64,000 nucleotides of DNA from Escherichia coli phage AZ21. The stretch lies in the sequence record LC788708.1. One strand, written 5' to 3'. The notes under the pieces were generated by a model. That model was not told the origin of the DNA, did not search any database, and worked only from the letters and a program-made list of their open reading frames with translations. Positions 26,176 to 50,151 of this stretch are shown here, in pieces. Position 1 is the first letter of the stretch, and each line of letters starts with the position of its first letter. Made by a program: the position numbers and the translations under genes.

Positions 26176-26604
26176 TTAAGCAGTTAAACCTGGGATGATA
26201 TACCCGAAACGTCGAAGTTTCTGAATCTCCTCATTTACTTCTTCCGGTGAGTAAGACCAACCGTAACGTTCATTAACCTGAAAACCAGGAGATTCACTAG
26301 TCTTATAGTTAACAACGAGGCGATGCTTAGCAGGCATAAACAGCTTATAGTTTAATGCAAAAACTAAGCCCATTTCATCTAACTCTTTCCAGCCAACAAT
26401 TTCTTCAAGACCCTCCTCTACCTGAACAATTAAACCAATACAGGGGGCCTCATCAATATCATCTTTAAAAGCAAAGGAGATTTCGTTATTTTCACACCAT
26501 ATTTTCAAGGAGTTAATAGCTTCATTATACAGGCTAGCTGGGAGAGTACGCCAAAAGTTAACCAAAATTGGGTTAGCTTCTTTAGAGAATACATTATTGA
26601 ACAT
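26176..26604 (-). CDS. Hypothetical protein (intact member of tandem paralogue pair)
   Basis: 142-aa ORF; paralogous to the interrupted copy downstream. Confidence 0.5.
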   Translation of the reverse strand: MFNNVFSKEANPILVNFWRTLPASLYNEAINSLKIWCENNEISFAFKDDIDEAPCIGLIVQVEEGLEEIVGWKELDEMGLVFALNYKLFMPAKHRLVVNYKTSESPGFQVNERYGWSYSPEEVNEEIQKLRRFGYIIPGLTA

Positions 26605-26606
26605 AT

Positions 26607-27113
26607 TTACACCTTAAATTGTTGTAAGGATTTACACATTTCAAGATCTGGGCTAAATTCTAGCATATAGCTAACAGCCATTAAATCTTGAAGATTTATC
26701 CCAGTCCTACCGTTGACTATAACTGTTGGATACTGATACATCATAGCACCAGCATCATCTAGCACACACCAATGTTTGAGCTTATGCTTTTCAACGAAGC
26801 GAAGAACAGAATTACCTCTAGATAGCCCACTCCCAGTAAAATCCGTTGTACCAAGAAAACGATCGATAAGGCCTAATCCGGTCATAATCTGAACGTTCTC
26901 CATCTCATTTTTGACAGAGAACCAAGATGATACTCCAACAATCATTATCGGAGAAGGACGAATAAAGTCCTGAAAAGCCTTGAGAAGCGGTTTGAAAACC
27001 CAGTCACTTCCAAAGAAAATCTTTTCATTATCAGGTGCATGATGGTGGGAGATGCTCGAATTGAGCACCCCATCAATATCTAGAAAAATAATTGGAGTAT
27101 TACTTATTTCCAT
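26607..27113 (-). CDS. HAD-superfamily phosphatase-like protein
   Basis: N-terminal IIFLDIDGVLN (HAD motif I DxDG) and C-terminal VLDDAG-type motif. Confidence 0.6.
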   Translation of the reverse strand: MEISNTPIIFLDIDGVLNSSISHHHAPDNEKIFFGSDWVFKPLLKAFQDFIRPSPIMIVGVSSWFSVKNEMENVQIMTGLGLIDRFLGTTDFTGSGLSRGNSVLRFVEKHKLKHWCVLDDAGAMMYQYPTVIVNGRTGINLQDLMAVSYMLEFSPDLEMCKSLQQFKV

Positions 27114-27309
27114 TTTTGTTCCTTTCTAAGAACGTATCATACTCAACCGTATCAACATATATAACACCATAGTCATCGGATTTATAGTCCATCTCCCACA
27201 GCTCACAGCGATAGCACCAACTACCATCTGCCCATACAAATATATCATCGGGATGTGTATAAACAGATTTAACTATGGACATATCTATTTCCCTTGCTTC
27301 TCGACACAT
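27100..27309 (-). CDS. Hypothetical protein
   Basis: 69-aa ORF overlapping neighbours at both ends. Confidence 0.4.
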   Translation of the reverse strand: MCREAREIDMSIVKSVYTHPDDIFVWADGSWCYRCELWEMDYKSDDYGVIYVDTVEYDTFLERNKNGNK

Positions 27310-28105
27310 AAGGTCTACCCTCTAAATGAGCTTCTACACGAGCAATAAAATCAGGGTCACTAAAAGCATCTACCGCACCTTTACTCCAGTAAGGGATACC
27401 GCGTTCTTCCAACTGGTACATCTCACTACGAGTCATACCTTGATAGCCAGGTTCTGCTGCGAGGGCACTATCATAGTAGTTAACAACCATAAGTTTCGCA
27501 GCAGTCAAATTAAGAACAGGAAATAATTCCCAGTAGAAGTTAATTACTTGGTTAGAGCAACCAACCACAATGATCATATCTTGACTGGTAATACCATCAA
27601 AAACATTATACATTTCTGCGTATGCAGGAGCACACTCCCCAAAGAAGATTACATTAGGTTTAACCCATTTATAATCATCTGGATCAATAGAATTGTATCC
27701 TACATCAATAATCCGTTTATTGCTACTATTGTAGCTATCAGCTACAACAACCTCTTTTAAATATCCGTGAATGTGCAGAATGTCACTATGTGGAACGCCA
27801 GCACGCTCAATAAGGTCATCAACGTTGGTAGTCAAGTTTACTACTTGACCTGGATATTGTTTATACCATTCACCAATACGCAAATGCGCAAGATTGGGTT
27901 CAACAGTTTTTAGCTCTTCACGACGCTTGTTGTAAAACATATGGGTTTTATGATAAAAATTACTACGAAAGGCATGAATATTACATACTTCTTCTAGATC
28001 ATAATCATCCCACAATGCTTTACCACTAGCAGTATCAGTACGGAAGGCTCGTACACCACTTTCAACACTCAAACCTGCACCACTAATAATAATTAATCTA
28101 CGCAT
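27269..28105 (-). CDS. Sir2 (sirtuin)-like NAD-binding protein
   Basis: GAGLSVESGVRAFR (sirtuin GAGxSxxSGIPxFR), TTNVDDL, HIHG (catalytic His), IFFGE, VVGCS; no zinc-ribbon cysteines seen. Confidence 0.65.
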   Translation of the reverse strand: MRRLIIISGAGLSVESGVRAFRTDTASGKALWDDYDLEEVCNIHAFRSNFYHKTHMFYNKRREELKTVEPNLAHLRIGEWYKQYPGQVVNLTTNVDDLIERAGVPHSDILHIHGYLKEVVVADSYNSSNKRIIDVGYNSIDPDDYKWVKPNVIFFGECAPAYAEMYNVFDGITSQDMIIVVGCSNQVINFYWELFPVLNLTAAKLMVVNYYDSALAAEPGYQGMTRSEMYQLEERGIPYWSKGAVDAFSDPDFIARVEAHLEGRPYVSRSKGNRYVHS

Positions 28106-28319
28106 TTTTCACCTGTTCTCTGAAGTTTTGCCCAATACTGTCTAATAGCTCAGCTAATTCTTTATTGCCTTTCCCCATTAAGGTATTAGCAATAACTTCT
28201 AGCATAGTAGCGCAGGATTCAACACCATCCTTATAGCCAGTTTCCCAGCGCTGCATTAATGCGTTTTCCAAAACAGCGTTTAAACCCTTATCTGGTAGCA
28301 TCGGCTTCGAGAATGCCAT
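28098..28319 (-). CDS. Hypothetical protein
   Basis: 73-aa ORF. Confidence 0.4.
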   Translation of the reverse strand: MAFSKPMLPDKGLNAVLENALMQRWETGYKDGVESCATMLEVIANTLMGKGNKELAELLDSIGQNFREQVKNA

Positions 28320-28491
28320 AAAGTTTCTCCTCTAGTTCCATGATACGACTTTCATAAGAGGCACGCAACTTTTCAATTGCCAGAGCACGCACTGTAATCT
28401 CATTAGAATTAATAGCTAATTGGGCCAGATCTTCTGTTTCCATACGTCCGTTGTAAATTAAGCGATATTTAAGATGTTTTACGTTTTTCAT
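28288..28491 (-). CDS. Hypothetical protein
   Basis: 67-aa ORF. Confidence 0.4.
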   Translation of the reverse strand: MKNVKHLKYRLIYNGRMETEDLAQLAINSNEITVRALAIEKLRASYESRIMELEEKLYGILEADATR

Positions 28492-28500
28492 TCTTGTTCC

Positions 28501-28782
28501 TTAGTTCTGTACTGTAAACTCATTCTTATCACAGTGAGCATAATAATACCCATACATACGATAAATTTTCACAGCCTTAGTAGACCCCTTCGATTCTTCA
28601 TAATCAATCCAGAGCCACTTGTCTTTACCTACATAATGTACCCGAAACTTCTTAACTTTCTTATCATTCCATGTTGCAACAACACGACGATAATCAAATC
28701 CTCCCAACCAATCTAGAGCCTTACGTTCTTCGCTAGGCTCTCCAAAATGGGAGACATCTACTTTAGGAAGCAACTCGCTCAT
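28501..28782 (-). CDS. Hypothetical protein
   Basis: 93-aa ORF; promoter box copy at 28785-28815. Confidence 0.45.
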   Translation of the reverse strand: MSELLPKVDVSHFGEPSEERKALDWLGGFDYRRVVATWNDKKVKKFRVHYVGKDKWLWIDYEESKGSTKAVKIYRMYGYYYAHCDKNEFTVQN

Positions 28783-28881
28783 AGCTTTCTCCTCTCAAAT
28801 TTATAAATCTATTATATATAAATTTTTGGCTGAAAGCAAATAAAATAAAAGCCAGGTCGACTAGCAACCCGGCTGATTAGC

Positions 28882-30729
28882 TTATTTAGCTCGAATATCC
28901 TGATGTTTCACTCTGCCCATCACCTCGTGCTGTTTGCCGGGGTTAAATGGACGAGCACCCGGATTTCCAAGATACCCACAAACTCGACGAGTTACTTCAA
29001 GAGTCTCAGGGTCATGATTACCACAGATAGGGCACTTAAATCCATCTTCGGATGCTATTGTTTCACCTAAGAATCCACATTTACCACAAGAATCCACTGG
29101 GGTATTAATACCGAAGTAATGAACCTTACTAGCAGCATAATTAATAACCCATTCCAGTGCATCTGGGAATCGTTTCATATCCGGTAGTTCTACATAGGAA
29201 ATGCACCCACCAGAAGCAATCGGAGTAAAGTTAGATTCATAATCAAATTTCACATTGGGAGCAACTTTACGTTCTACATCAAGGTGGTGCGAGTTAGTGT
29301 AGTATCCTTTGGACAGAATATCTTCATGCTCTGGGAAATATTCACGGTCTAGACGACAAAAACGGTCGCATAGGGATTCTGATGGTGTAGCATACAGACT
29401 ATAACCTAGTTTAGTTTCTTCCTTCTTCTGATCGACTCTATCCCGCATGTACTGCAATACACGCTGAACAAACTTGATGCAGGTCTCGGACATTGTGTCT
29501 ACATCTTTGCCAAACATGAACTGTAGCATTTCATGGCAGCCAATATACCCTAGAGATACAGAAGCACGGTTATAGAAATGATCGAATACATATTCCTCAG
29601 GCCCCAAGCGTAACCCAAAGGCTCCTGACATATAGAGGATGGGTGCAGCTTTAGCTTGAATGTATTTTAAGCGATCAACTCTCCACTCCAACGCTTTTAA
29701 TGCTGTATCCACACGTAGCTCAAGCAAATCAAAGAATAGGTCAATATTTCCTTCAGCTTCGATAGCAATTCTAGGCAAGTTTACAGAAACAACACCTAAG
29801 TTATTACGACCGGCAGTTTCACCATCTTCTGTAGCAGCTAGGAATGAACGGCAGCCCATAGAAACTTTATAGTCTCCAGTAACTTCTACAACCTTGTCAT
29901 AGCTGATATAATCTGGATACATACGTTCAGCAGTACATTTCATAGCTAACTTCTTGATGTCATAATTAACATCTCCTGGTTTCATGTTAACACCATCACG
30001 AAGTACAAATACCAGTTTCGGGAAGATAGCTGTACGTTTATTGATACCTAAACCATCCATGCGTACTTTCAGTATTGCCCTCTGTACTAGACGTGCTTCC
30101 CAAGAAGTTCCTAGACCAAAACCAAAGGTAATAAATGGACTCTGACCATTAGAGTTGAACATGGTATTGATTTCATATTCTAAACCCTGACAAGCGTCAT
30201 AGACTTCTTTTTCAGTCATCTCCGTAGCCATTACGGATGCTTTGGCCTCATCCTTAGTCCAACGTTTTGCAAACGCATGATTTTTATCATAGGATTTACG
30301 AACATAAGGGGCTAATACTTCATCAAGGCGATCTACAGAAGTACCACCATACTGATGGGAGCTAACCTGAGTGATAATCTGAGCAGTAATAGCCGCCGCA
30401 GTAGTAATAGAGTTTGGAGTGCTAATTTCAGCATTACCAACCTTCATACCATTCTTCAACATATCTTCCAGAGCTACCAGACAACAGTTAGTCATGCCTA
30501 ATGCAGCATAATCAGCATCATGGAAATGAATATCCCCAATCATATGAGCATTTCGAATCTGAATTGGCATTTCTTCTAGAATCAGATACTTACTCAATTC
30601 ACCTGCAAGCATATCCCTTTGTGTAGGGAAACGTTCTGAGGGTTTATTAGCATTATTAAACAGCAGCTCTTCATCTGCTGACCCTTCGATAATCTCTTTG
30701 CAGTTTCTAATCAATTCATCTTTGTTCAT
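28882..30729 (-). CDS. nrdD: Anaerobic ribonucleoside-triphosphate reductase (class III RNR)
   Basis: 615 aa; C-terminal zinc site CGKCGF...CPICG and glycyl-radical motif RRVCGYLG. Confidence 0.9.
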   Translation of the reverse strand: MNKDELIRNCKEIIEGSADEELLFNNANKPSERFPTQRDMLAGELSKYLILEEMPIQIRNAHMIGDIHFHDADYAALGMTNCCLVALEDMLKNGMKVGNAEISTPNSITTAAAITAQIITQVSSHQYGGTSVDRLDEVLAPYVRKSYDKNHAFAKRWTKDEAKASVMATEMTEKEVYDACQGLEYEINTMFNSNGQSPFITFGFGLGTSWEARLVQRAILKVRMDGLGINKRTAIFPKLVFVLRDGVNMKPGDVNYDIKKLAMKCTAERMYPDYISYDKVVEVTGDYKVSMGCRSFLAATEDGETAGRNNLGVVSVNLPRIAIEAEGNIDLFFDLLELRVDTALKALEWRVDRLKYIQAKAAPILYMSGAFGLRLGPEEYVFDHFYNRASVSLGYIGCHEMLQFMFGKDVDTMSETCIKFVQRVLQYMRDRVDQKKEETKLGYSLYATPSESLCDRFCRLDREYFPEHEDILSKGYYTNSHHLDVERKVAPNVKFDYESNFTPIASGGCISYVELPDMKRFPDALEWVINYAASKVHYFGINTPVDSCGKCGFLGETIASEDGFKCPICGNHDPETLEVTRRVCGYLGNPGARPFNPGKQHEVMGRVKHQDIRAK

Positions 30730-31387
30730 TAATTATTTCCTCAATAAACCTTGCTACTACTTCTGGCTCAATACTAAAAAATTCTGTAGCACCATCAAAA
30801 TCTTTATATTGACAATTATATTCCTTAAAATGTAGATGGGTTTCTCTCTCAATACGCATAGCTTTTGATCTATCTGAAAAGCTATACTCCTTAAATATTT
30901 TTAAATCATGTATGTTAGAAGAAGTTTTAATATCTCTGAGTCTATCTTTAGTTCTGCTAGACACACCTATTTTGGTCCCCACATTACTTACTAAAATATA
31001 TACGTTAGTAGGATAATTATCCTTTTCTAATAAACATATAGGACAACCAGAATTATGATTCCTAACACTATCGAGTGTAGACTCCCACCTATGATCATTC
31101 TCACAGCTAAACATGATTTTACTCTTGGAATTGATGTATTTACCTTCCATCTTTATTCCACGGGCAGCTAACGACTCATTTACTTCTTTAAGATCTAAAG
31201 TACGGCTAGCACAATAAGGGCAGCCCCTACCACCTTTTACGTTATCTACTCTAGCCTCCCAACTATGTCCATTAGAGCACTTAAATATAGCATTGGATTT
31301 AGCTGATATATACGTGCTTAGCATAACTATTCCTCTAGGAGCAAGTGCTAAGTTCACATCTTCTGTAGTTATTTTCTTTCTTACCAT
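30716..31387 (-). CDS. T5orf172 / GIY-YIG-like domain protein with tandem zinc-ribbon repeats (putative homing endonuclease)
   Basis: Two repeats FKCSNGHSWEARVDNVKGGRGCPYCA and FSCENDHRWESTLDSVRNHNSGCPICL; C-terminal NVYILVSNVGTKIGVSS...GATEFF; start overlaps nrdD by 14 nt. Confidence 0.6.
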   Translation of the reverse strand: MVRKKITTEDVNLALAPRGIVMLSTYISAKSNAIFKCSNGHSWEARVDNVKGGRGCPYCASRTLDLKEVNESLAARGIKMEGKYINSKSKIMFSCENDHRWESTLDSVRNHNSGCPICLLEKDNYPTNVYILVSNVGTKIGVSSRTKDRLRDIKTSSNIHDLKIFKEYSFSDRSKAMRIERETHLHFKEYNCQYKDFDGATEFFSIEPEVVARFIEEIINEQR

Positions 31388-31609
31388 TAAATTCTCCTTA
31401 ATTCACATATTATACATAATTCCACCCCATACGTCAACTACATTTTTCTAATACTATTTGACTTTTGATTTTTATCAATTTTTATTGACGTTATACAGCA
31501 TAATATCTTTACGTATAAATAAATGAATATCTAGTATCATATTTCTACCTTTATAAGCAAGTAAACTTTTTATTTAAAAGCAATATCATAGGTTTATTTA
31601 AAATTATAC

Positions 31610-31638
31610 TTGCTTTTTGCTGTAAACCTTGTTATAAT
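31610..31638 (+). promoter_or_regulatory. Sigma70-type early promoter (phoH operon) in the divergent intergenic region
   Basis: ttgctt-17 nt-tataat in AT-rich 320-bp region. Confidence 0.6.
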
Positions 31639-31714
31639 ATATTCGTAAGTTGATAAACAAGATCTCTTTGTTGATCCTCTGTTAGAAGCGAAGTACACTA
31701 TAGGAGTGTTATTT

Positions 31715-32467
31715 ATGGGAAAAGCACGTCAAAAAAGAGAGAACCGCAATGGTTCAAGAAAGCGTGGCAACAAATATGAGAATACCGTAATTCAGGCTGA
31801 TTTTTCTAATGATTACGCTAACCCAGTTGCTAAATCCCTAGTAGGTAAAAACCGCGAGCAAAAATCATATATCAATATGATCAAGAACAACACAGTGACT
31901 GTGGGTATCGGTGAGCCGGGTACTGGTAAAACCTTTATTCCGTCCGTTCTTGCAGCTCAGGAACTCGTAGACATTCACTCAGATATTGAGCAAGTGATCC
32001 TCGTACGTCCTAATGAACCTCTAGGCAAGTCTCTTGGTATGCTTCCTGGTGATCTAGCAGAAAAGCTAGAGCCTTGGTTGGAGCCAATAGCTGATGGTAT
32101 GAAATGGGCCATCGGCGATCATGCATATAAAGGATATGTCGAACGTCAGAAAATTAAATTTTTGGCTATCGAACATGCTCGTGGCAGAACTTTCAACAAC
32201 TCCTATGTAATTGTCGATGAAGCTCAGAATATTTCCGTTGAGGCAATGATTTGTCTCCTAACTCGTGTAGGACAAGACTGCCGTTTAATTATCTGCGGAG
32301 ATATAGCTCAGAAAGACATTAAAGGTGACTCAGGTCTAGCACTCCTTATGGAAGTCTATGAGAAATACGAAAATGCCCCATTCTCAATGATCGAATTGAT
32401 TGATAACGTTCGTTCTGTCGAGTCTAAAGCATTCTATGATATTTTTAAAGACATGGGGAAGGTGTAA
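31715..32467 (+). CDS. phoH: PhoH-like ATPase
   Basis: Walker A GEPGTGKT, Walker B VIVDEAQN; start at ATG with RBS aggag (not the upstream GTG at 31706). Confidence 0.85.
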   Translation: MGKARQKRENRNGSRKRGNKYENTVIQADFSNDYANPVAKSLVGKNREQKSYINMIKNNTVTVGIGEPGTGKTFIPSVLAAQELVDIHSDIEQVILVRPNEPLGKSLGMLPGDLAEKLEPWLEPIADGMKWAIGDHAYKGYVERQKIKFLAIEHARGRTFNNSYVIVDEAQNISVEAMICLLTRVGQDCRLIICGDIAQKDIKGDSGLALLMEVYEKYENAPFSMIELIDNVRSVESKAFYDIFKDMGKV

Positions 32468-44767: not shown

Positions 44768-44842
44768 CGGGGTGTAGTCTAAGGGAGAGGCAGGAGTCTT
44801 CTAAATTCCTTTATGCAGGTTCGAATCCTGTCACCTCGGCCA
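44768..44842 (+). tRNA. tRNA-Arg (anticodon UCU)
   Basis: Acceptor cggggtg/cacctcg, D-stem gtct/aggc, anticodon stem ggagt/attcc with loop cTTCTAa, T-arm gcagg-ttcgaat-cctgt, discriminator g, encoded CCA. Confidence 0.8.
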
Positions 44843-44876
44843 ATTTTATTAACTGTAACTAAAACAAAGGAAACAT

Positions 44877-45824
44877 ATGTTTAATACTAAAAATATGAAA
44901 GAATTGACTTCTGAGCAGAAAGTAATTCGTACTATTAAACGTTGGGGTATTGGTGCTGTAGTTGGTTTAGCAGGTTTAATCCTAGCTTTTAATTCGTATA
45001 CCATTGTTTCTGATGGTACGGTTAAAACCCAAACATTCCTGGGTAAAGTAGACCCTAATCCAGTATTACCTGGTTTCCATCTTGTAAACCCGTTTGCATC
45101 TTTCGATACTTTTAGTACGAAAGATATTTCTATGAAACTGGATAAACTTCAGGTTCCTAGCCAGGATAAGTTTAAGTCTACAGTTGACATTACCGTTATG
45201 TTGCAGTTTGATGGTGCTAAAGCTCCTATTAACCGTGTTAACGCAGGTACTCAGGATCAAGCTCTGAACAAGTACGTTGAAGAGAAGATGCTGTCTACGA
45301 TTCGTGAGTTTGGTAAGTCTGTACCAAAAGCACAAGATCTGTTCGACGCTAAGATTCAGGCTCAACTGCAAACCGCTATTCAGCAAGAAGTAGAAGAGTA
45401 TGCGCGTCCTTATGGCTACACCGTTAAGCAAGTATTCCTTCAGGATATTACTCTGCCACCGGTAATCATGGAACAGGTACAAAACACCAAAGTTCGTGAA
45501 GAACAAGTTAACGCTGCAAAAGCTGAACTAGCTCGTGTTGAACAAGAAGCACAGCAGAAAGTTAAGCAAGCTGAGGCTGATCGTTCTGCTCGTGAAAATA
45601 TGGCAGTAGCTAACGAACGTGACGCAGATGCTAAACTGTATGCGGCTAAGAAAGAAGCTGAAGCTAACACCGCTCTGCAGCGTACCATCACTCCAGAGAT
45701 GATTCGCTGGAAACAGCTGGAAGTTGATATGAAACGCGCTGAAAAATATCAGGGTGGCGTTCCTCAGACTGTTGTAGGTACTGGTTATGATGGCCAGATG
45801 ATTATGGATATGCGTAATAAGTAA
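44877..45824 (+). CDS. SPFH/band-7 (prohibitin/HflC-like) membrane protein
   Basis: 315 aa; N-terminal TM helix IGAVVGLAGLILAF, SPFH core, C-terminal coiled-coil. Confidence 0.65.
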   Translation: MFNTKNMKELTSEQKVIRTIKRWGIGAVVGLAGLILAFNSYTIVSDGTVKTQTFLGKVDPNPVLPGFHLVNPFASFDTFSTKDISMKLDKLQVPSQDKFKSTVDITVMLQFDGAKAPINRVNAGTQDQALNKYVEEKMLSTIREFGKSVPKAQDLFDAKIQAQLQTAIQQEVEEYARPYGYTVKQVFLQDITLPPVIMEQVQNTKVREEQVNAAKAELARVEQEAQQKVKQAEADRSARENMAVANERDADAKLYAAKKEAEANTALQRTITPEMIRWKQLEVDMKRAEKYQGGVPQTVVGTGYDGQMIMDMRNK

Positions 45825-45847
45825 TAGTTACACGTAATCTTCGAAAC

Positions 45848-45882
45848 AAGCCCGCGTTTCCTCCGAGAGCGCGGGCTTTTCT
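45848..45882 (+). terminator. Rho-independent terminator
   Basis: aagcccgcg-loop-cgcgggctt followed by ttctg. Confidence 0.7.
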
Positions 45883-46027
45883 GTATTTAAGGCAAAAGAA
45901 AAGCCCATAAGTTATTCAACTAAGGTCTTTAGTACTTAATTCTTTAGAATCATATACTATTATTGCAGCAACAACGTGCTACCACTAAATGCCCTACGAT
46001 TTTCCTCTAAAAAGTTAAAAAATTCGA

Positions 46028-46056
46028 TTGCTTGAATGCTAAATTCTCTGTATAAT
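46028..46056 (+). promoter_or_regulatory. Sigma70-type early promoter
   Basis: ttgctt-17 nt-tataat-atatttataaatttgagagagg. Confidence 0.7.
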
Positions 46057-46086
46057 ATATTTATAAATTTGAGAGAGGAATCAAAT

Positions 46087-46383
46087 ATGAAACGCATTGT
46101 ACTTGCATTGACTCTAGTATCTACTTCTGTATTTGCTGCTCCACAACAGGAACTTTGTCAAGTTCAAGTTTGTAATAAGCTAGAACGATTTACTTTGGAT
46201 ATTTGGTCACACATTAAAGATAATATGGGTGAGCAATGTTTTGATATTGTTCTGCCAAAAGAACAAGCTGTTCCTGGTGCTGTTCTCAGCTCAGAATCAC
46301 GTTGGTGGCAAGGTTCTTCTATCAATCCAACTAAGAAGTCAGTGACACGTATCAAACAAGTGTATCAGTGCAGTGTTCAGTAA
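46087..46383 (+). CDS. Small secreted Cys-containing protein
   Basis: Signal peptide MKRIVLALTLVSTSVFAAPQ; 98 aa; start at ATG with RBS gagagagg. Confidence 0.5.
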   Translation: MKRIVLALTLVSTSVFAAPQQELCQVQVCNKLERFTLDIWSHIKDNMGEQCFDIVLPKEQAVPGAVLSSESRWWQGSSINPTKKSVTRIKQVYQCSVQ

Positions 46384-46391
46384 AATTTCAC

Positions 46392-46420
46392 TTGCTTAAT
46401 GCCGAAATTTTCTATATAAT
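46392..46420 (+). promoter_or_regulatory. Sigma70-type early promoter
   Basis: ttgctt-17 nt-tataat. Confidence 0.65.
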
Positions 46421-46451
46421 ATATTCTATAAATTATAGATAGGAGTCATAT

Positions 46452-46970
46452 ATGACTGTTGACGAGTTAAAACAACATCTTTTATCTAGGGGCTTTGATA
46501 GTGATAAGTATCACTGTTGGCTCTCTCCACATGGATGGTTAACAGTTCCACTGTATGATTTCTCTGGCATGTTACGTGGATATCAAACATATAACCCTAG
46601 TGCAGCTAAAGGTCATGGAAAATGTCCTTCTGAAGCTAAATATTTTACGCATTCTTCTACTCAATGTCTATGGGGTTTAGAAACTCTTACAGGTAATGAA
46701 GACCTAGTATTAGTTGCAGAATCTGTATTTAAAGCTGTGGCACTACACAACGCGGGATATCCCGCACTAGCAATGCTAGGATCTTCCCCTAGCAAAGCAC
46801 TGCTAAAGCAGCTAAAATTACAACCTTTTAAAGTAGTAGCCGTAGGCGATAATGATTCTGCTGGTGAGAAGTTTGCTAAAAAACTAAATGGGTTTACTTC
46901 CCTCATGGATTTAGATGAAATGAATACAGAAAACTTGAAAAATTTTCTTGCCATGAAGCTAAATTTCTAA
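46452..46970 (+). CDS. Hypothetical protein with TOPRIM-like segment
   Basis: 172 aa; LVLVAESVFKAVAL...VVAVGDNDSAGEKFAKKL resembles TOPRIM acidic motifs; the downstream tRNA promoter -35 lies within its 3' end. Confidence 0.4.
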   Translation: MTVDELKQHLLSRGFDSDKYHCWLSPHGWLTVPLYDFSGMLRGYQTYNPSAAKGHGKCPSEAKYFTHSSTQCLWGLETLTGNEDLVLVAESVFKAVALHNAGYPALAMLGSSPSKALLKQLKLQPFKVVAVGDNDSAGEKFAKKLNGFTSLMDLDEMNTENLKNFLAMKLNF

Positions 46971-46976
46971 TATAAT
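46948..46976 (+). promoter_or_regulatory. Sigma70-type promoter for tRNA-Ser/tRNA-Met pair
   Basis: ttgcca-17 nt-tataat-atattcataaattt immediately followed by the tRNA 5' end. Confidence 0.65.
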
Positions 46977-46990
46977 ATATTCATAAATTT

Positions 46991-47084
46991 GGAAGATTAA
47001 CCCTAAAGGTAAGGGAGCTGTTTGCTAAACAGCCAGTAGCTGTGGAGACACGGTGTGCCAGTTCGAATCTGGCATCTTCCTCCA
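46991..47084 (+). tRNA. tRNA-Ser (anticodon GCU), class II with long variable arm
   Basis: Acceptor ggaagat/atcttcc (7 bp), anticodon stem gctgt/acagc with loop tTGCTaa, long variable arm, T-arm gccag-ttcgaat-ctggc, encoded CCA. Confidence 0.8.
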
Positions 47085-47089
47085 AATTT

Positions 47090-47167
47090 GGTTCTCAAGC
47101 TCATTTGGTATGAGCCGTCGCCTCATAAGCGAAAGGTAGGCAGGTTCGAATCCTCCGGGAGCCACCA
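47090..47167 (+). tRNA. tRNA with CAU anticodon (Met or Ile-lysidine type)
   Basis: Acceptor ggttctc/gggagcc, D-stem gctc/gagc, anticodon loop cTCATaa, T-loop ttcgaat, encoded CCA; one non-WC pair in each of the anticodon and T stems. Confidence 0.6.
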
Positions 47168-47186
47168 AATTAAATAAGGACAACTA

Positions 47187-47375
47187 ATGGAATTATTCAT
47201 AGTTTCTATTAAATTTGCACAAGATAGAGAACATTCGGACGAGTTTAAACAAGGGTACAGACTAGTAAAGGCTACATCTGAACTACATGCTATGGACAAA
47301 GTAGTAGACTATATGTATAAAGTAGAAGACGTTTACTACGTCAATGCTTTAGAAGCCTCAAAAGTAATTAACTAG
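47187..47375 (+). CDS. Hypothetical protein
   Basis: 62-aa ORF with RBS aaggacaactaATG. Confidence 0.45.
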   Translation: MELFIVSIKFAQDREHSDEFKQGYRLVKATSELHAMDKVVDYMYKVEDVYYVNALEASKVIN

Positions 47376-47383
47376 GAGACTAT

Positions 47384-47569
47384 ATGTCCAAATTTCAAGA
47401 ACTCAAGCAAGAGCTAGAAGAGTGTGCCTGCCCAAAATGCTTCGGAGTAGGTGAGTGGAACGATGCTGAACCCGGTGATACACGGTATAATACATACGTT
47501 TGTACATATTGTAATGGTTCTGGTATTAATCCTGAATGTGGTATTTCTCTAGACATTGAGCGAGGTTAA
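47384..47569 (+). CDS. Small zinc-ribbon-like Cys-rich protein
   Basis: 61 aa; CACPKCFG ... CTYCNGSG. Confidence 0.45.
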   Translation: MSKFQELKQELEECACPKCFGVGEWNDAEPGDTRYNTYVCTYCNGSGINPECGISLDIERG

Positions 47570-47909
47570 GATGGATATTTTTACTACTCCGGCAATAAAC
47601 CTTTTAGGTGTTGGCTTGTTCCAAGCTACGGTGTATCGTACTGATGATTCTACTGATGTGGTAACGTTCATCGTACCTGAGTTCTTCCTAGAAAAGTTCT
47701 TTGAAGAGTTTGAGCAGTTCCGTGAAGAACACAATGCTCATTCCGATATGGAAGATCTAGCAGCTATGTTCCCTGCGGTTTACGGCTATATCTTTGAAGG
47801 TAATGGCCTAGATCTTAATAAATCTGAACTCGTTGAACTTAACTGGGGCATCAATTTTGAAGTTGGCTCTCCATTCCCTCGATATTTCCAGGGTTTAGAG
47901 ATTCGCTAA
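47556..47909 (+). CDS. Hypothetical acidic protein
   Basis: 117-aa ORF overlapping the upstream stop. Confidence 0.45.
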   Translation: MSEVKMDIFTTPAINLLGVGLFQATVYRTDDSTDVVTFIVPEFFLEKFFEEFEQFREEHNAHSDMEDLAAMFPAVYGYIFEGNGLDLNKSELVELNWGINFEVGSPFPRYFQGLEIR

Positions 47910-47917
47910 GATTACAT

Positions 47918-47994
47918 GGGGGTGTAATCGAATTGGCATAGGTACTGGACTTAAAATTCAGGTTTTGTGGGTTCGAATCCCACCACCCCTACCA
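47918..47994 (+). tRNA. tRNA with UAA anticodon (Leu by anticodon) but class I short variable arm
   Basis: Acceptor gggggtg/cacccct (7 bp), anticodon stem ctgga/ttcag with loop cTTAAaa, 5-nt variable loop, T-arm gtggg-ttcgaat-cccac, discriminator a, encoded CCA. Confidence 0.6.
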
Positions 47995-48009
47995 AATTAA
48001 GGAAATAAA

Positions 48010-48132
48010 ATGAAAGCTATTAAGAAAGCACTGCGTAAATTTATGTATTGTCGTTTTCATAGCATCAAGGCTTCAACTAATGGTACTACTTACGATCGCT
48101 ATGATCCTAAGTTTGGCTTACATTCTAAATAA
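48010..48132 (+). CDS. Possible small basic peptide (40 aa)
   Basis: RBS aaggaaataaaATG; below the ORF-track cutoff. Confidence 0.3.
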   Translation: MKAIKKALRKFMYCRFHSIKASTNGTTYDRYDPKFGLHSK

Positions 48133-48145
48133 CTGGAGAAAACAA

Positions 48146-48352
48146 ATGGCTAATCCTGAAATTACGGCACAACGCTTTATGCTGAAAGGAATTATTGCTG
48201 AAGCAGGCATGACAGAAGAAGTTGCAGATTTTCAAAAGCAATTCCTCAATATTCTCACTCAAGCCAAAGAGCTAGGAGAGAAAGAACATGGCGCGGCTAT
48301 TATGGCAATCACATTGGTTGGGCTTGATCTGGCTGAAGAATCAGGAGTTTAA
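48146..48352 (+). CDS. Hypothetical protein
   Basis: 68 aa from MANPEITAQ with RBS ctggagaaaacaaATG. Confidence 0.45.
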   Translation: MANPEITAQRFMLKGIIAEAGMTEEVADFQKQFLNILTQAKELGEKEHGAAIMAITLVGLDLAEESGV

Positions 48353-48382
48353 CTCCTCCAAGCAGAAATTTTAAAAATGTAC

Positions 48383-48412
48383 TTGCTTTTTGCTTAAGAT
48401 TTCTGCTATAAT
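48383..48412 (+). promoter_or_regulatory. Sigma70-type early promoter
   Basis: ttgctt-18 nt-tataat-agttatataagttgatgagagg. Confidence 0.6.
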
Positions 48413-48441
48413 AGTTATATAAGTTGATGAGAGGAATCAGA

Positions 48442-48717
48442 ATGTTAAAACGTTTTGCAGCAACTGGTATTGAAAGCTCAGTATGTAAATCCTGGGGTGG
48501 TTGGGAAGGTGAGATCGAGTGGCTTCAGTTCTACAATGTAGAACTTCTTCCAGAGATCAAAGCTCAATGTATTGAGGCTGGTATGGCTCCTGATGCTACG
48601 GCTGATGTTGAAATCAGCATGAATAAGCTAGAGGGTCGAGTAGTCACTGTTACTGATGAAGGTGAAGAGGTATTCGAACTTCCATTCACTTTGAAAGTCA
48701 CTCCTTCATTTGATTAA
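48442..48717 (+). CDS. Hypothetical acidic protein
   Basis: 91 aa from MLKRFAAT. Confidence 0.5.
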   Translation: MLKRFAATGIESSVCKSWGGWEGEIEWLQFYNVELLPEIKAQCIEAGMAPDATADVEISMNKLEGRVVTVTDEGEEVFELPFTLKVTPSFD

Positions 48718-48753
48718 CTGATACAGCACTGAGCAAGTTCTTTAAAATTTGAC

Positions 48754-48782
48754 TTGCTCAGTGCCTTAAAACTTGATATAAT
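48754..48782 (+). promoter_or_regulatory. Sigma70-type promoter upstream of tRNA-Tyr
   Basis: ttgctc-17 nt-tataat. Confidence 0.55.
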
Positions 48783-48847
48783 ATTTATCTAATTTGGAAA
48801 CATATTTAAAAGTGTTTAAATGAGAATTTTTGAATACTTCTAAATAT

Positions 48848-48935
48848 GGGCGTTTATTCCGTAAGTGGTAGCGGAGGGGATTGTAAATCCCTGGTCATTG
48901 CGACTCGAGTGGTTCGACTCCATTAACGCCCACCA
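48848..48935 (+). tRNA. tRNA-Tyr (anticodon GUA), class II
   Basis: Acceptor gggcgtt/aacgccc (7 bp), D-stem tccg/cgga, anticodon stem gggga/tccct with loop tTGTAaa, long variable arm, T-arm agtgg-ttcgact-ccatt, encoded CCA. Confidence 0.75.
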
Positions 48936-48952
48936 AATTAAAGGTAAAGGAT

Positions 48953-49144
48953 ATGTATATTGATCGGATAATTCAAGAAGCTGCAAATAGGGGTATTATA
49001 CAGTTGGGTTCACCCGCTGATATAAATAAAGATCTAATATTAGAAAGCCTCACATTTGGTACAGCTAACTTTGGTCGCGATAGTAATCGTCGATATAGCT
49101 TGAAGTTATCTGCACTATCTTTTATCAAGTATAACAAATTATAG
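48953..49144 (+). CDS. Hypothetical protein
   Basis: 63-aa ORF between two tRNAs; stop overlaps the next tRNA 5' end. Confidence 0.4.
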   Translation: MYIDRIIQEAANRGIIQLGSPADINKDLILESLTFGTANFGRDSNRRYSLKLSALSFIKYNKL

Positions 49145-49218
49145 TTAGTTGGCAGAGTGGTTATGCACCTCCTTCATACGGAGCGACTACAGTGGTTCAA
49201 CTCCACTACTAACTACCA
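49143..49218 (+). tRNA. tRNA with CAU anticodon (second copy; Met/fMet or Ile2)
   Basis: Acceptor agttagt/actaact (7 bp), anticodon stem ctcc/ggag with loop tTCATac, T-arm agtgg-ttcaact-ccact, encoded CCA. Confidence 0.7.
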
Positions 49219-49401
49219 AAGATAAGATCAGGCCTTTGTGCCAGATCTCTGTGTTTATTAAACTGAATGGGACTATCAATCCACAAGCCGGACTACGAGC
49301 GATTATCGGGTATTCACTTAATAAACAGCCTGCCTCCCAGTTTTTATCTTGCTTCTGGGTTAACAAAAAGCTGAGCCAAATTCTAACATCAGGGAGATCT
49401 A

Positions 49402-49770
49402 ATGAAAGCATATCAAAGTCTTAAGTCTGGCGTAATTAACCTTGTTCATGATAACCAGATCATTCAGCTATATTCTAAAGATGGTGAACTTAAACAAAAG
49501 GTTCTAGTTGAAGATCTAGAGGGTATCACACCTCATTTTGACCCTGAGGCCTTCCGCATTGTAGATGTAGAAGTGGTTCCTCAAGTCGAGGGTGGTCAGC
49601 ACCTAAATGTCAATGTGTTAAGCCGTGATCAGCTTTTGGATGCACAGAAACATCCTGAAAAATATCCTCAGTTGACCATCCGTGTCTCTGGCTATGCTGT
49701 TCGATTTAACGCATTGACGCGTGAACAACAGAACGACGTTATTAGTCGTACATTTACTCAGGCGATATAA
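49402..49770 (+). CDS. grcA: Autonomous glycyl-radical cofactor (GrcA/YfiD-like)
   Basis: 122 aa; [11 protein letters not shown]...[37 protein letters not shown] is the conserved GrcA/PFL C-terminal glycyl-radical domain (RVSGY). Confidence 0.8.
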
Positions 49771-49851
49771 TGGGGTTTGGATACGATTTCTCCCAACTAC
49801 GCAAGGTAGTCGAGCAAACTCCATTTATCTCCCAAGTTTTAGGAGAAATGT

Positions 49852-50151
49852 GTGGATCGAGCATTAAGACGCCATCACCGGCAACGTGTGAAAAACAATC
49901 GCAAGAAGTATTGGACAGTCTTCCCACATGAAGAAAGCCCTAAGAGGTTAGGCATTATCACTACCACTCCTTGCATCTGTTCTTGTTGGATGTGTGGGAA
50001 TCCTCGCAAATACTATAAGAATAGTAAAGCAGGCATGAAAATTTCGGAGATTAAAAAGATGGATGCAATGATTATGGGCATCACCTTTACAGGTGGTATC
50101 TCTGATGAATTCGACGGTTTTGTAACTCAGGATATTGTCGAAATTATCTAA
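49852..50151 (+). CDS. Hypothetical Cys-rich basic protein (GTG start)
   Basis: 99 aa; PCICSCWMCGNP; RBS aggag 6 nt before GTG. Confidence 0.4.
   Translation: MDRALRRHHRQRVKNNRKKYWTVFPHEESPKRLGIITTTPCICSCWMCGNPRKYYKNSKAGMKISEIKKMDAMIMGITFTGGISDEFDGFVTQDIVEII

Follow-up and report, generated by a model that had tools for sequence, protein, structure and literature searches.

The locus considered here raises the question of whether a short open reading frame behind the tRNA cluster of a coliphage encodes an autonomous glycyl-radical cofactor of the GrcA (YfiD) type, and which enzyme such a protein would serve. The window, by which we mean the whole 64,000-nucleotide stretch of Escherichia coli phage AZ21 (LC788708.1) that was analysed, is 99.99% identical to E. 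coli phage AZ23 (LC788707.1, record positions 73-46161 and 47954-65912), a T5-like Tequintavirus of the Demerecviridae. The AZ23 counterpart of the protein, AZ23E_0680, is 100% identical and is labelled 'hypothetical protein'. The features of the locus are the following.

49143..49218, plus strand: tRNA-Met (CAU), last gene of the tRNA cluster (ARAGORN; Rfam tRNA 49.5 bits).
49391..49396, plus strand: Shine-Dalgarno sequence AGGGAG, 5 nt before the ATG of the GrcA-like gene, read directly from the sequence.
49402..49770, plus strand: coding sequence of the 122-residue GrcA-like, putative autonomous glycyl-radical protein, stop codon included (open reading frame and translation).
49402..49581, plus strand: N-terminal half, residues 1-60, apparently a divergent counterpart of the GrcA N-terminal region.
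49582..49767, plus strand: C-terminal glycyl-radical domain, residues 61-122, corresponding to PflB 698-759 and GrcA 66-127.
49681..49701, plus strand: radical loop R94-V-S-G97-Y-A-V100, with the G97 codon GGC at 49690-49692 as the predicted radical site.

The frame at 49402..49770 is intact, with an ATG start, 122 codons and a TAA stop, and its translation is identical to that quoted in the first-pass annotation. The Shine-Dalgarno sequence has a counterpart, AGGAG, at the same place in T5. The encoded protein contains no cysteine. The gene starts 183 nt 3' of the last of six tRNA genes predicted by ARAGORN between 44768 and 49218. The annotated order in T5 is promoter P11, followed further on by tRNA-Ile, T5.057, tRNA-Met, T5.056, T5.055 and a terminator, and tRNA-Met and the GrcA-like gene are probably carried on one transcript here, as in T5. 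No overlooked tRNA or structured RNA was detected in the 183 nt that separate tRNA-Met from the ATG: Rfam gave no match, and the fold energy was no better than that of shuffled sequences (z 0.5).

Two observations concern the surroundings of the gene. Relative to T5, a 170-nt insertion (49230-49399, plus strand) lies between tRNA-Met and the Shine-Dalgarno sequence of the GrcA-like gene. It is bounded by short repeats ending in GATC, is about 99.9% identical in many Epseptimavirus and Tequintavirus genomes, and contains a weak promoter-like site at 49360-49389; it gave no Rfam match, and its fold is not unusual. Furthermore, the six tRNA genes (Arg-UCU, Ser-GCU, Met, Leu-UAA, Tyr and Met) are the only ones predicted in 44768-49218, whereas the annotated tRNA region of T5 holds at least 17 tRNAs within 10 kb as well as tRNA-like stable RNAs, and the tRNA numbering of GRNsp8 reaches at least 30. 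Compared with these two phages, the tRNA island is strongly reduced.

The first-pass annotation had claimed a glycyl-radical signature in the C-terminal half of the protein, and this is borne out far beyond chance. The Pfam Gly_radical profile matched residues 62-103 with 66.1 bits (cut-off 22.2; E 4.7e-18). A phmmer search against the PDB recovered GrcA (6OWR, E 2.4e-29) and PflB (E 1.7e-26), the latter with a gap-free alignment of residues 61-121 to PflB 698-758. G97 stands in an exact RVSGYAV heptad and is aligned to G734, the radical glycine of PflB, and to G102 of GrcA. Over the last 61 residues the protein shares 47 positions with E. coli PflB (77%) and 49 with E. coli GrcA (80%), while E. 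coli GrcA and PflB are themselves 79% identical across the same stretch. The RVSGYAV loop is invariant in alignments of 11 and of 45 homologues; in the latter, which comprises phage and bacterial sequences, 36 positions of the radical domain are invariant.

Structure prediction agrees with this picture. The AF2 model of the C-terminal half contains helices at residues 75-83 and 107-117 flanking two strands (92-95 and 98-101), that is, a helix, a beta-hairpin with the glycine at its tip, and a second helix. With Foldseek, the best matches of the model in the PDB were YfiD (6OWR, E 5.4e-6) and PFL (2PFL, E 1.8e-4). Model confidence is moderate (mean pLDDT 75.5, pTM 0.41) and is low for residues 61-71, the strand expected to insert into pyruvate formate-lyase (PFL). 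The C-terminal half is thus predicted to adopt the fold of PFL residues 693-759, with its strand, radical hairpin and helix.

Among NCBIfam models, the three GrcA models ranked at the top, and the best was GrcA TIGR04365 (E 2.4e-34). The score on this equivalog model, 118.3 bits, lies below the cut-off of 170 and comes from residues 54-121 only, because residues 1-50 lack direct significant similarity to bacterial GrcA. For calibration, E. coli GrcA scored 234 bits, the T4 protein Y06I 151 bits and the T5 orthologue T5.056 121.5 bits. Since the experimentally validated Y06I also falls below 170 bits, the cut-off does not mark a functional boundary for phage members. The short GrcA2 and GrcA3 proteins (NF008341 and NF038360; about 80 residues) have the radical domain in common with the phage protein, which scored 90 and 116 bits on these models, under their cut-offs of 145 and 158; they lack the N-terminal half of about 60 residues. 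The phage-family profile phrog_1209 was matched from end to end (E 7.5e-47), with residues 1-122 aligned to positions 1-121 of its 121. The protein thus has the GrcA/YfiD layout, an N-terminal region of about 60 residues followed by a PFL-type radical domain of about 60 residues.

Like the phage protein, E. coli GrcA/YfiD (6OWR; TIGR04365; IPR011140) is a standalone protein of about 14 kDa, and the two are 74% identical over the last 74 residues. They differ in residues 1-50, and in that the phage copy is a viral gene, expected to belong to a phage transcription unit instead of being under host grcA control. PflB retains the equivalent glycine, G734, in its matching C-terminal domain (698-759) but is 760 residues long. 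The 122-residue protein is not a pyruvate formate-lyase proper: on TIGR01255 it scored 84.3 bits against a cut-off of 994, matching profile positions 683-743 only. It lacks the catalytic barrel and Cys418/Cys419, which makes the label 'pyruvate formate-lyase' carried by many phage records a misnomer.

The N-terminal half is more difficult to place. In profile comparisons with hhalign that were restricted to the N-termini, the T5-like group and bacterial GrcA gave no significant match when compared directly (12 columns). The T5-like profile did match that of a group of T4-like, jumbo-phage and other homologues (probability 94%, E 1.3e-7), and the latter matched bacterial GrcA (probability 99.6%, E 7.8e-24). 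The N-terminal half therefore appears to be homologous to the GrcA N-terminus, by a transitive link only. This link suggests a gene of grcA type as the ancestor, and not a pflB 3' end that had been captured. AF2 placed beta strands in residues 1-36 with a pLDDT of about 85, so that the N-terminal half is predicted to be ordered, which we take as a hint only. NMR shows residues 1-60 of YfiD to be disordered; they favour association with cleaved PFL and installation of the radical, but not catalysis (PMC8683613). Foldseek gave no match in the PDB for the N-terminal half of the model; this is explained by the 6OWR chain searched, which has 60 residues only, and by the disorder of YfiD residues 1-60.

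Compared with T5, dN/dS of the gene is 0.065 overall (dS 0.64), 0.094 in the N-terminal half and 0.026 in the C-terminal half. Both halves are under strong purifying selection, and the gene is real and probably functional. From the sequence comparisons, the domain architecture, the predicted C-terminal fold and the homology to Y06I of T4, we conclude that the view of the 122-residue product as a GrcA/YfiD-like autonomous glycyl-radical cofactor is supported, as the first-pass annotation had proposed.

Proteins of this kind are widespread in phages. With tblastn, homologues were detected in 1583 phage records, of which about 438 are T5-like at 80% identity or more. The remainder belong mainly to T4-like phages of Escherichia and Klebsiella, jumbo phages of Serratia, Salmonella and Klebsiella, and phages of Aeromonas and Vibrio. 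T5.056, with 92.6% amino acid identity, is annotated as a 'putative acetyltransferase-related protein' with a match to InterPro IPR001150, so that its record carries a glycine-radical note. Proteins that are 98-99% identical have already been named 'glycyl radical cofactor', 'glycine radical domain-containing protein' or, loosely, 'pyruvate formate-lyase'. Naming is inconsistent among orthologues of 91-99% identity, where 'pyruvate formate-lyase', '2-ketobutyrate formate-lyase', 'ribonucleotide reductase subunit', 'acetyltransferase-related protein' and 'hypothetical protein' all occur; few orthologue records carry the label 'glycyl radical cofactor'.

The closest characterized relative is Y06I (vs.6) of phage T4. 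It has 120 residues against 122, the same two-part architecture, the same phrog_1209 and the same RVSGYAV loop, and a full-length BLASTP alignment gave 51% identity (E 7e-38) with a common MKAYQ start. Identity is found mostly in residues 51-122, while the N-terminal half is far more diverged. Within the C-terminal part, Y06I is nearly identical to E. coli GrcA, whereas the T5-like proteins have their own substitutions A104, R107, N111 and S115. The T4 gene lies among the early genes tk, vs and regB and not in a tRNA cluster, and T4 has its own NrdG. PMC8683613 gives an account of work by Knappe and co-workers (Wagner et al. 2001, BBRC 285:456), according to which PFL activase installs a glycyl radical on E. 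coli YfiD as well as on T4 Y06I, and each of the two restores the activity of O2-cleaved PFL. These two are the sole spare-part proteins validated to date (PMC8683613).

Phage GrcA is therefore already known in kind, and both its presence in phages and its annotation in the T5-like clade are established. The novelty implied by the first-pass annotation does not survive these precedents: a phage GrcA was characterized in 2001, as reported in PMC8683613, the T5 orthologue already carries a glycine-radical note, and the occurrence of nrdD without nrdG has been published for T5-like phages (PMC3653736). In the literature searched, no paper was found that connects T5-like phages with glycyl-radical or GrcA proteins or treats the T5-like copy.

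The same genome encodes a second glycyl-radical protein, and the feature is as follows.

28882..30729, minus strand: NrdD, 615 residues, the other glycyl-radical protein of the phage (Pfam NRDD 573.9 bits, with its own Gly_radical domain).

The Pfam match confirms the presence of NrdD at the position reported by the first-pass annotation. The protein is 54% identical to E. coli NrdD and has the identical TRRVCGYLG radical motif and a Zn site. Pfam searches of the genes neighbouring nrdD revealed neither nrdG nor another radical-SAM gene. The neighbourhood (26176-32467) contains an open reading frame with T5orf172, DUF4379 and CapR domains that overlaps the nrdD start (30716-31387, minus strand), PhoH (31706-32467, plus strand), a Sir2-family protein (27269-28105, minus strand), a HAD_SAK_2 'Swiss Army Knife RNA repair' HAD protein (26607-27113, minus strand), a DUF7415 protein (26176-26604, minus strand) and small proteins of no assigned function.

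The search for an activase was extended to the full AZ23 genome of 104,075 bp. We looked for a CxxxCxxC motif in a protein of at least 150 residues with detectable similarity to PflA or NrdG. In a six-frame scan of the window and the AZ23 genome for this motif in open reading frames of at least 60 residues, two short frames were found, neither of them an activase: one of 99 residues at 49852-50151, which is zinc-finger-like, and one of 98 residues inside another gene, which is probably spurious. Searches with tblastn of the same sequences, using PflA and NrdG of E. coli and NrdG of T4, gave nothing better than E 0.2. The statement of the first-pass annotation that no activase is visible in the window thus holds, and it extends to the whole AZ23 genome. 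As no phage activase was found, NrdD and the GrcA-like protein would have to rely on NrdG and PflA of the host.

Two candidates for an activase were considered and rejected. A 93-residue frame downstream of nrdD (phrog_7953, no assigned function) resembled NrdG with E 0.2 over 22 residues, a chance match. The 99-residue frame at 49852-50151 has C41, C45 and C48 in CICSCWMC, formally a CxxxCxxC motif, with 'TFTGG' 30 residues on, and tblastn weakly paired it with the cysteine cluster and GGD motifs of T4 NrdG (E 0.88). A radical-SAM fold would need a far longer protein; moreover, the frame has no Pfam match and belongs to phrog_4499, a profile of 88 positions with no assigned function; the TFTGG segment is missing in T5.055, and distant homologues span residues 1-69 only.

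The 99-residue frame (plus strand), which lies directly 3' of the GrcA-like gene, is of some interest in its own right. It is the orthologue of T5.055, with a very basic N-terminus and the cysteine cluster CICSCWMCGNPRK, and its family occurs in about 490 phage records, including distant jumbo phages of Erwinia, Rhizobium and Serratia in which only residues 1-69 are similar. The product is probably a small zinc-finger protein. Between the stop codon of the GrcA-like gene and this frame, about 60 nt (approximately 49800-49860) are 100% identical to T5, against about 87% for the coding DNA on either side, a difference that suggests a conserved regulatory or translation-initiation element. A further frame of 53 residues (49770-49931, plus strand; phrog_31464) has an ATG that overlaps the stop codon of the GrcA-like gene (TAATG). 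Substitutions relative to T5 are mostly non-synonymous in the frame of this 53-residue product and synonymous in that of the 99-residue product.

Upstream, at a junction around 46041-46090, the window lacks a cassette of about 1.8 kb that is present in AZ23 (LC788707.1, 46158-47892) and encodes NadR, an NMN adenylyltransferase/ribosylnicotinamide kinase, and the nicotinamide riboside transporter PnuC. In AZ23 the nadR-pnuC cassette stands between two copies of a promoter/RBS/ATG segment of about 44 nt (TCTGTATAATATATTTATAAATTTGAGAGAGGAATCAAATATGA), of which the window has one. The difference has the look of a variant produced by clean recombination, either a deletion or an insertion; the cassette is likewise missing from other T5-like phages, DT57C among them.

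As to function, we consider it likely that the gene is a phage GrcA (YfiD), a 14-kDa spare part for PFL that docks onto O2-cleaved PflB and, once G97 has been activated by host PflA, allows pyruvate cleavage to resume. The infected cell would make the protein, probably early and from a transcript shared with the tRNA cluster. It would bind host PflB from which O2 cleavage at the G734 radical has removed the last 26 residues, and its own C-terminal 61 residues would replace the glycyl-radical domain of PflB, comprising the strand, the radical loop and the helix. The host radical-SAM activase PflA would then put the radical on G97 in the RVSGYAV loop, and the hybrid enzyme could again convert pyruvate and CoA to acetyl-CoA and formate. 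Fermentative ATP and acetyl-CoA would in this way continue to be supplied under micro-oxic or anoxic conditions, in cells in which the phage has shut off host gene expression.

The grounds computed for the 122-residue protein itself are its sequence, architecture, selection and predicted C-terminal fold. Its activation, the rescue of PFL and the benefit to the phage are what we infer by analogy, activation and rescue being known from E. coli YfiD and T4 Y06I only. In the literature searched, no study was found on the benefit of any phage GrcA, that of T4 included, to infection.

Other readings were weighed against that of a PFL spare part. The T5-like N-terminal half is constrained, predicted to be ordered and without a direct match to bacterial GrcA, and in YfiD this region recognizes damaged PFL. 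The protein might therefore recognize a different partner or state, for example TdcE, PflB that is intact but inactive, or some other glycyl-radical enzyme of the host, or it might bind much more tightly; it would then be a viral takeover module for host fermentation and not a simple repair part. We regard this as unlikely; if true, the module would sit in a phage that relies on two host activases, PflA and NrdG, for two radical proteins.

A related possibility, likewise improbable, is that the protein is a spare part for another PFL-type enzyme state of the host, namely TdcE (2-ketobutyrate formate-lyase) or intact inactive PflB, with the N-terminal half setting the partner. This would fit the role of the YfiD N-terminus in partner recognition (PMC8683613) and the divergence of that region in the T5-like protein. 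The label '2-ketobutyrate formate-lyase' on some orthologue records points the same way, but such names are automatic annotation and not evidence, and this reading overlaps with that of a PFL spare part without excluding it.

It is quite improbable that the protein is a decoy or inhibitor that titrates host PflA or caps PflB, thereby redirecting or shutting down host fermentation. Although mimics of host proteins are common in phages and the N-terminal half has diverged from host GrcA, invariance of the whole radical loop and of 36 positions in the radical domain fits retained catalysis better than mere binding. Moreover, the T4 homologue restores PFL activity and does not inhibit it, according to the account in PMC8683613.

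The first-pass annotation had also allowed for a role in the glycyl-radical chemistry of the phage itself, in which the protein would swap the oxygen-cleaved radical domain of NrdD and keep dNTP synthesis running. In favour of this, the phage carries nrdD as well, whose product is just as sensitive to oxygen, and spare parts for other glycyl-radical enzymes have been the subject of speculation (PMC8683613). BLASTP of the protein against phage NrdD, however, gave E 3.1 with a misaligned match, and the NrdD loop TRRVCGYLG follows a Zn-binding CxxC...CxxC site, unlike the context of RVSGYAV. The protein resembles PflB about as closely as E. coli GrcA does (77% versus 79%), and its gene and nrdD are 19 kb apart on opposite strands. 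As no similarity to the NrdD radical domain is detectable, we reject the repair of NrdD, which we hold to be very improbable. The protein is likewise not a component of class III ribonucleotide reductase: it is cysteine-free and not a radical-SAM protein, and it shows no similarity to the phage NrdD.

That the gene has lost its function and is what is left of a grcA or a pflB 3' end captured from a host, as the 'hypothetical protein' label in AZ23 and the variable tRNA and accessory region might suggest, is barely credible and is refuted by the selection and conservation data, namely an intact frame with a Shine-Dalgarno sequence, the low dN/dS at a dS of 0.64, retention in about 438 T5-like genomes and a GrcA-type N-terminal half, which pflB lacks.

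The reading of the gene as a phage GrcA corrects the AZ23 label and the loose names of its orthologues, and otherwise adds little to what is known of phage proteins of this type. What novelty is left lies in the N-terminal half, which in T5-like phages has diverged and yet is constrained, and in a possible role of phage GrcA in infection at low oxygen. T5-like phages have two oxygen-sensitive glycyl-radical proteins, NrdD and the GrcA-like protein, and no activase, so that at low oxygen a productive infection should require PflA and NrdG of the host.
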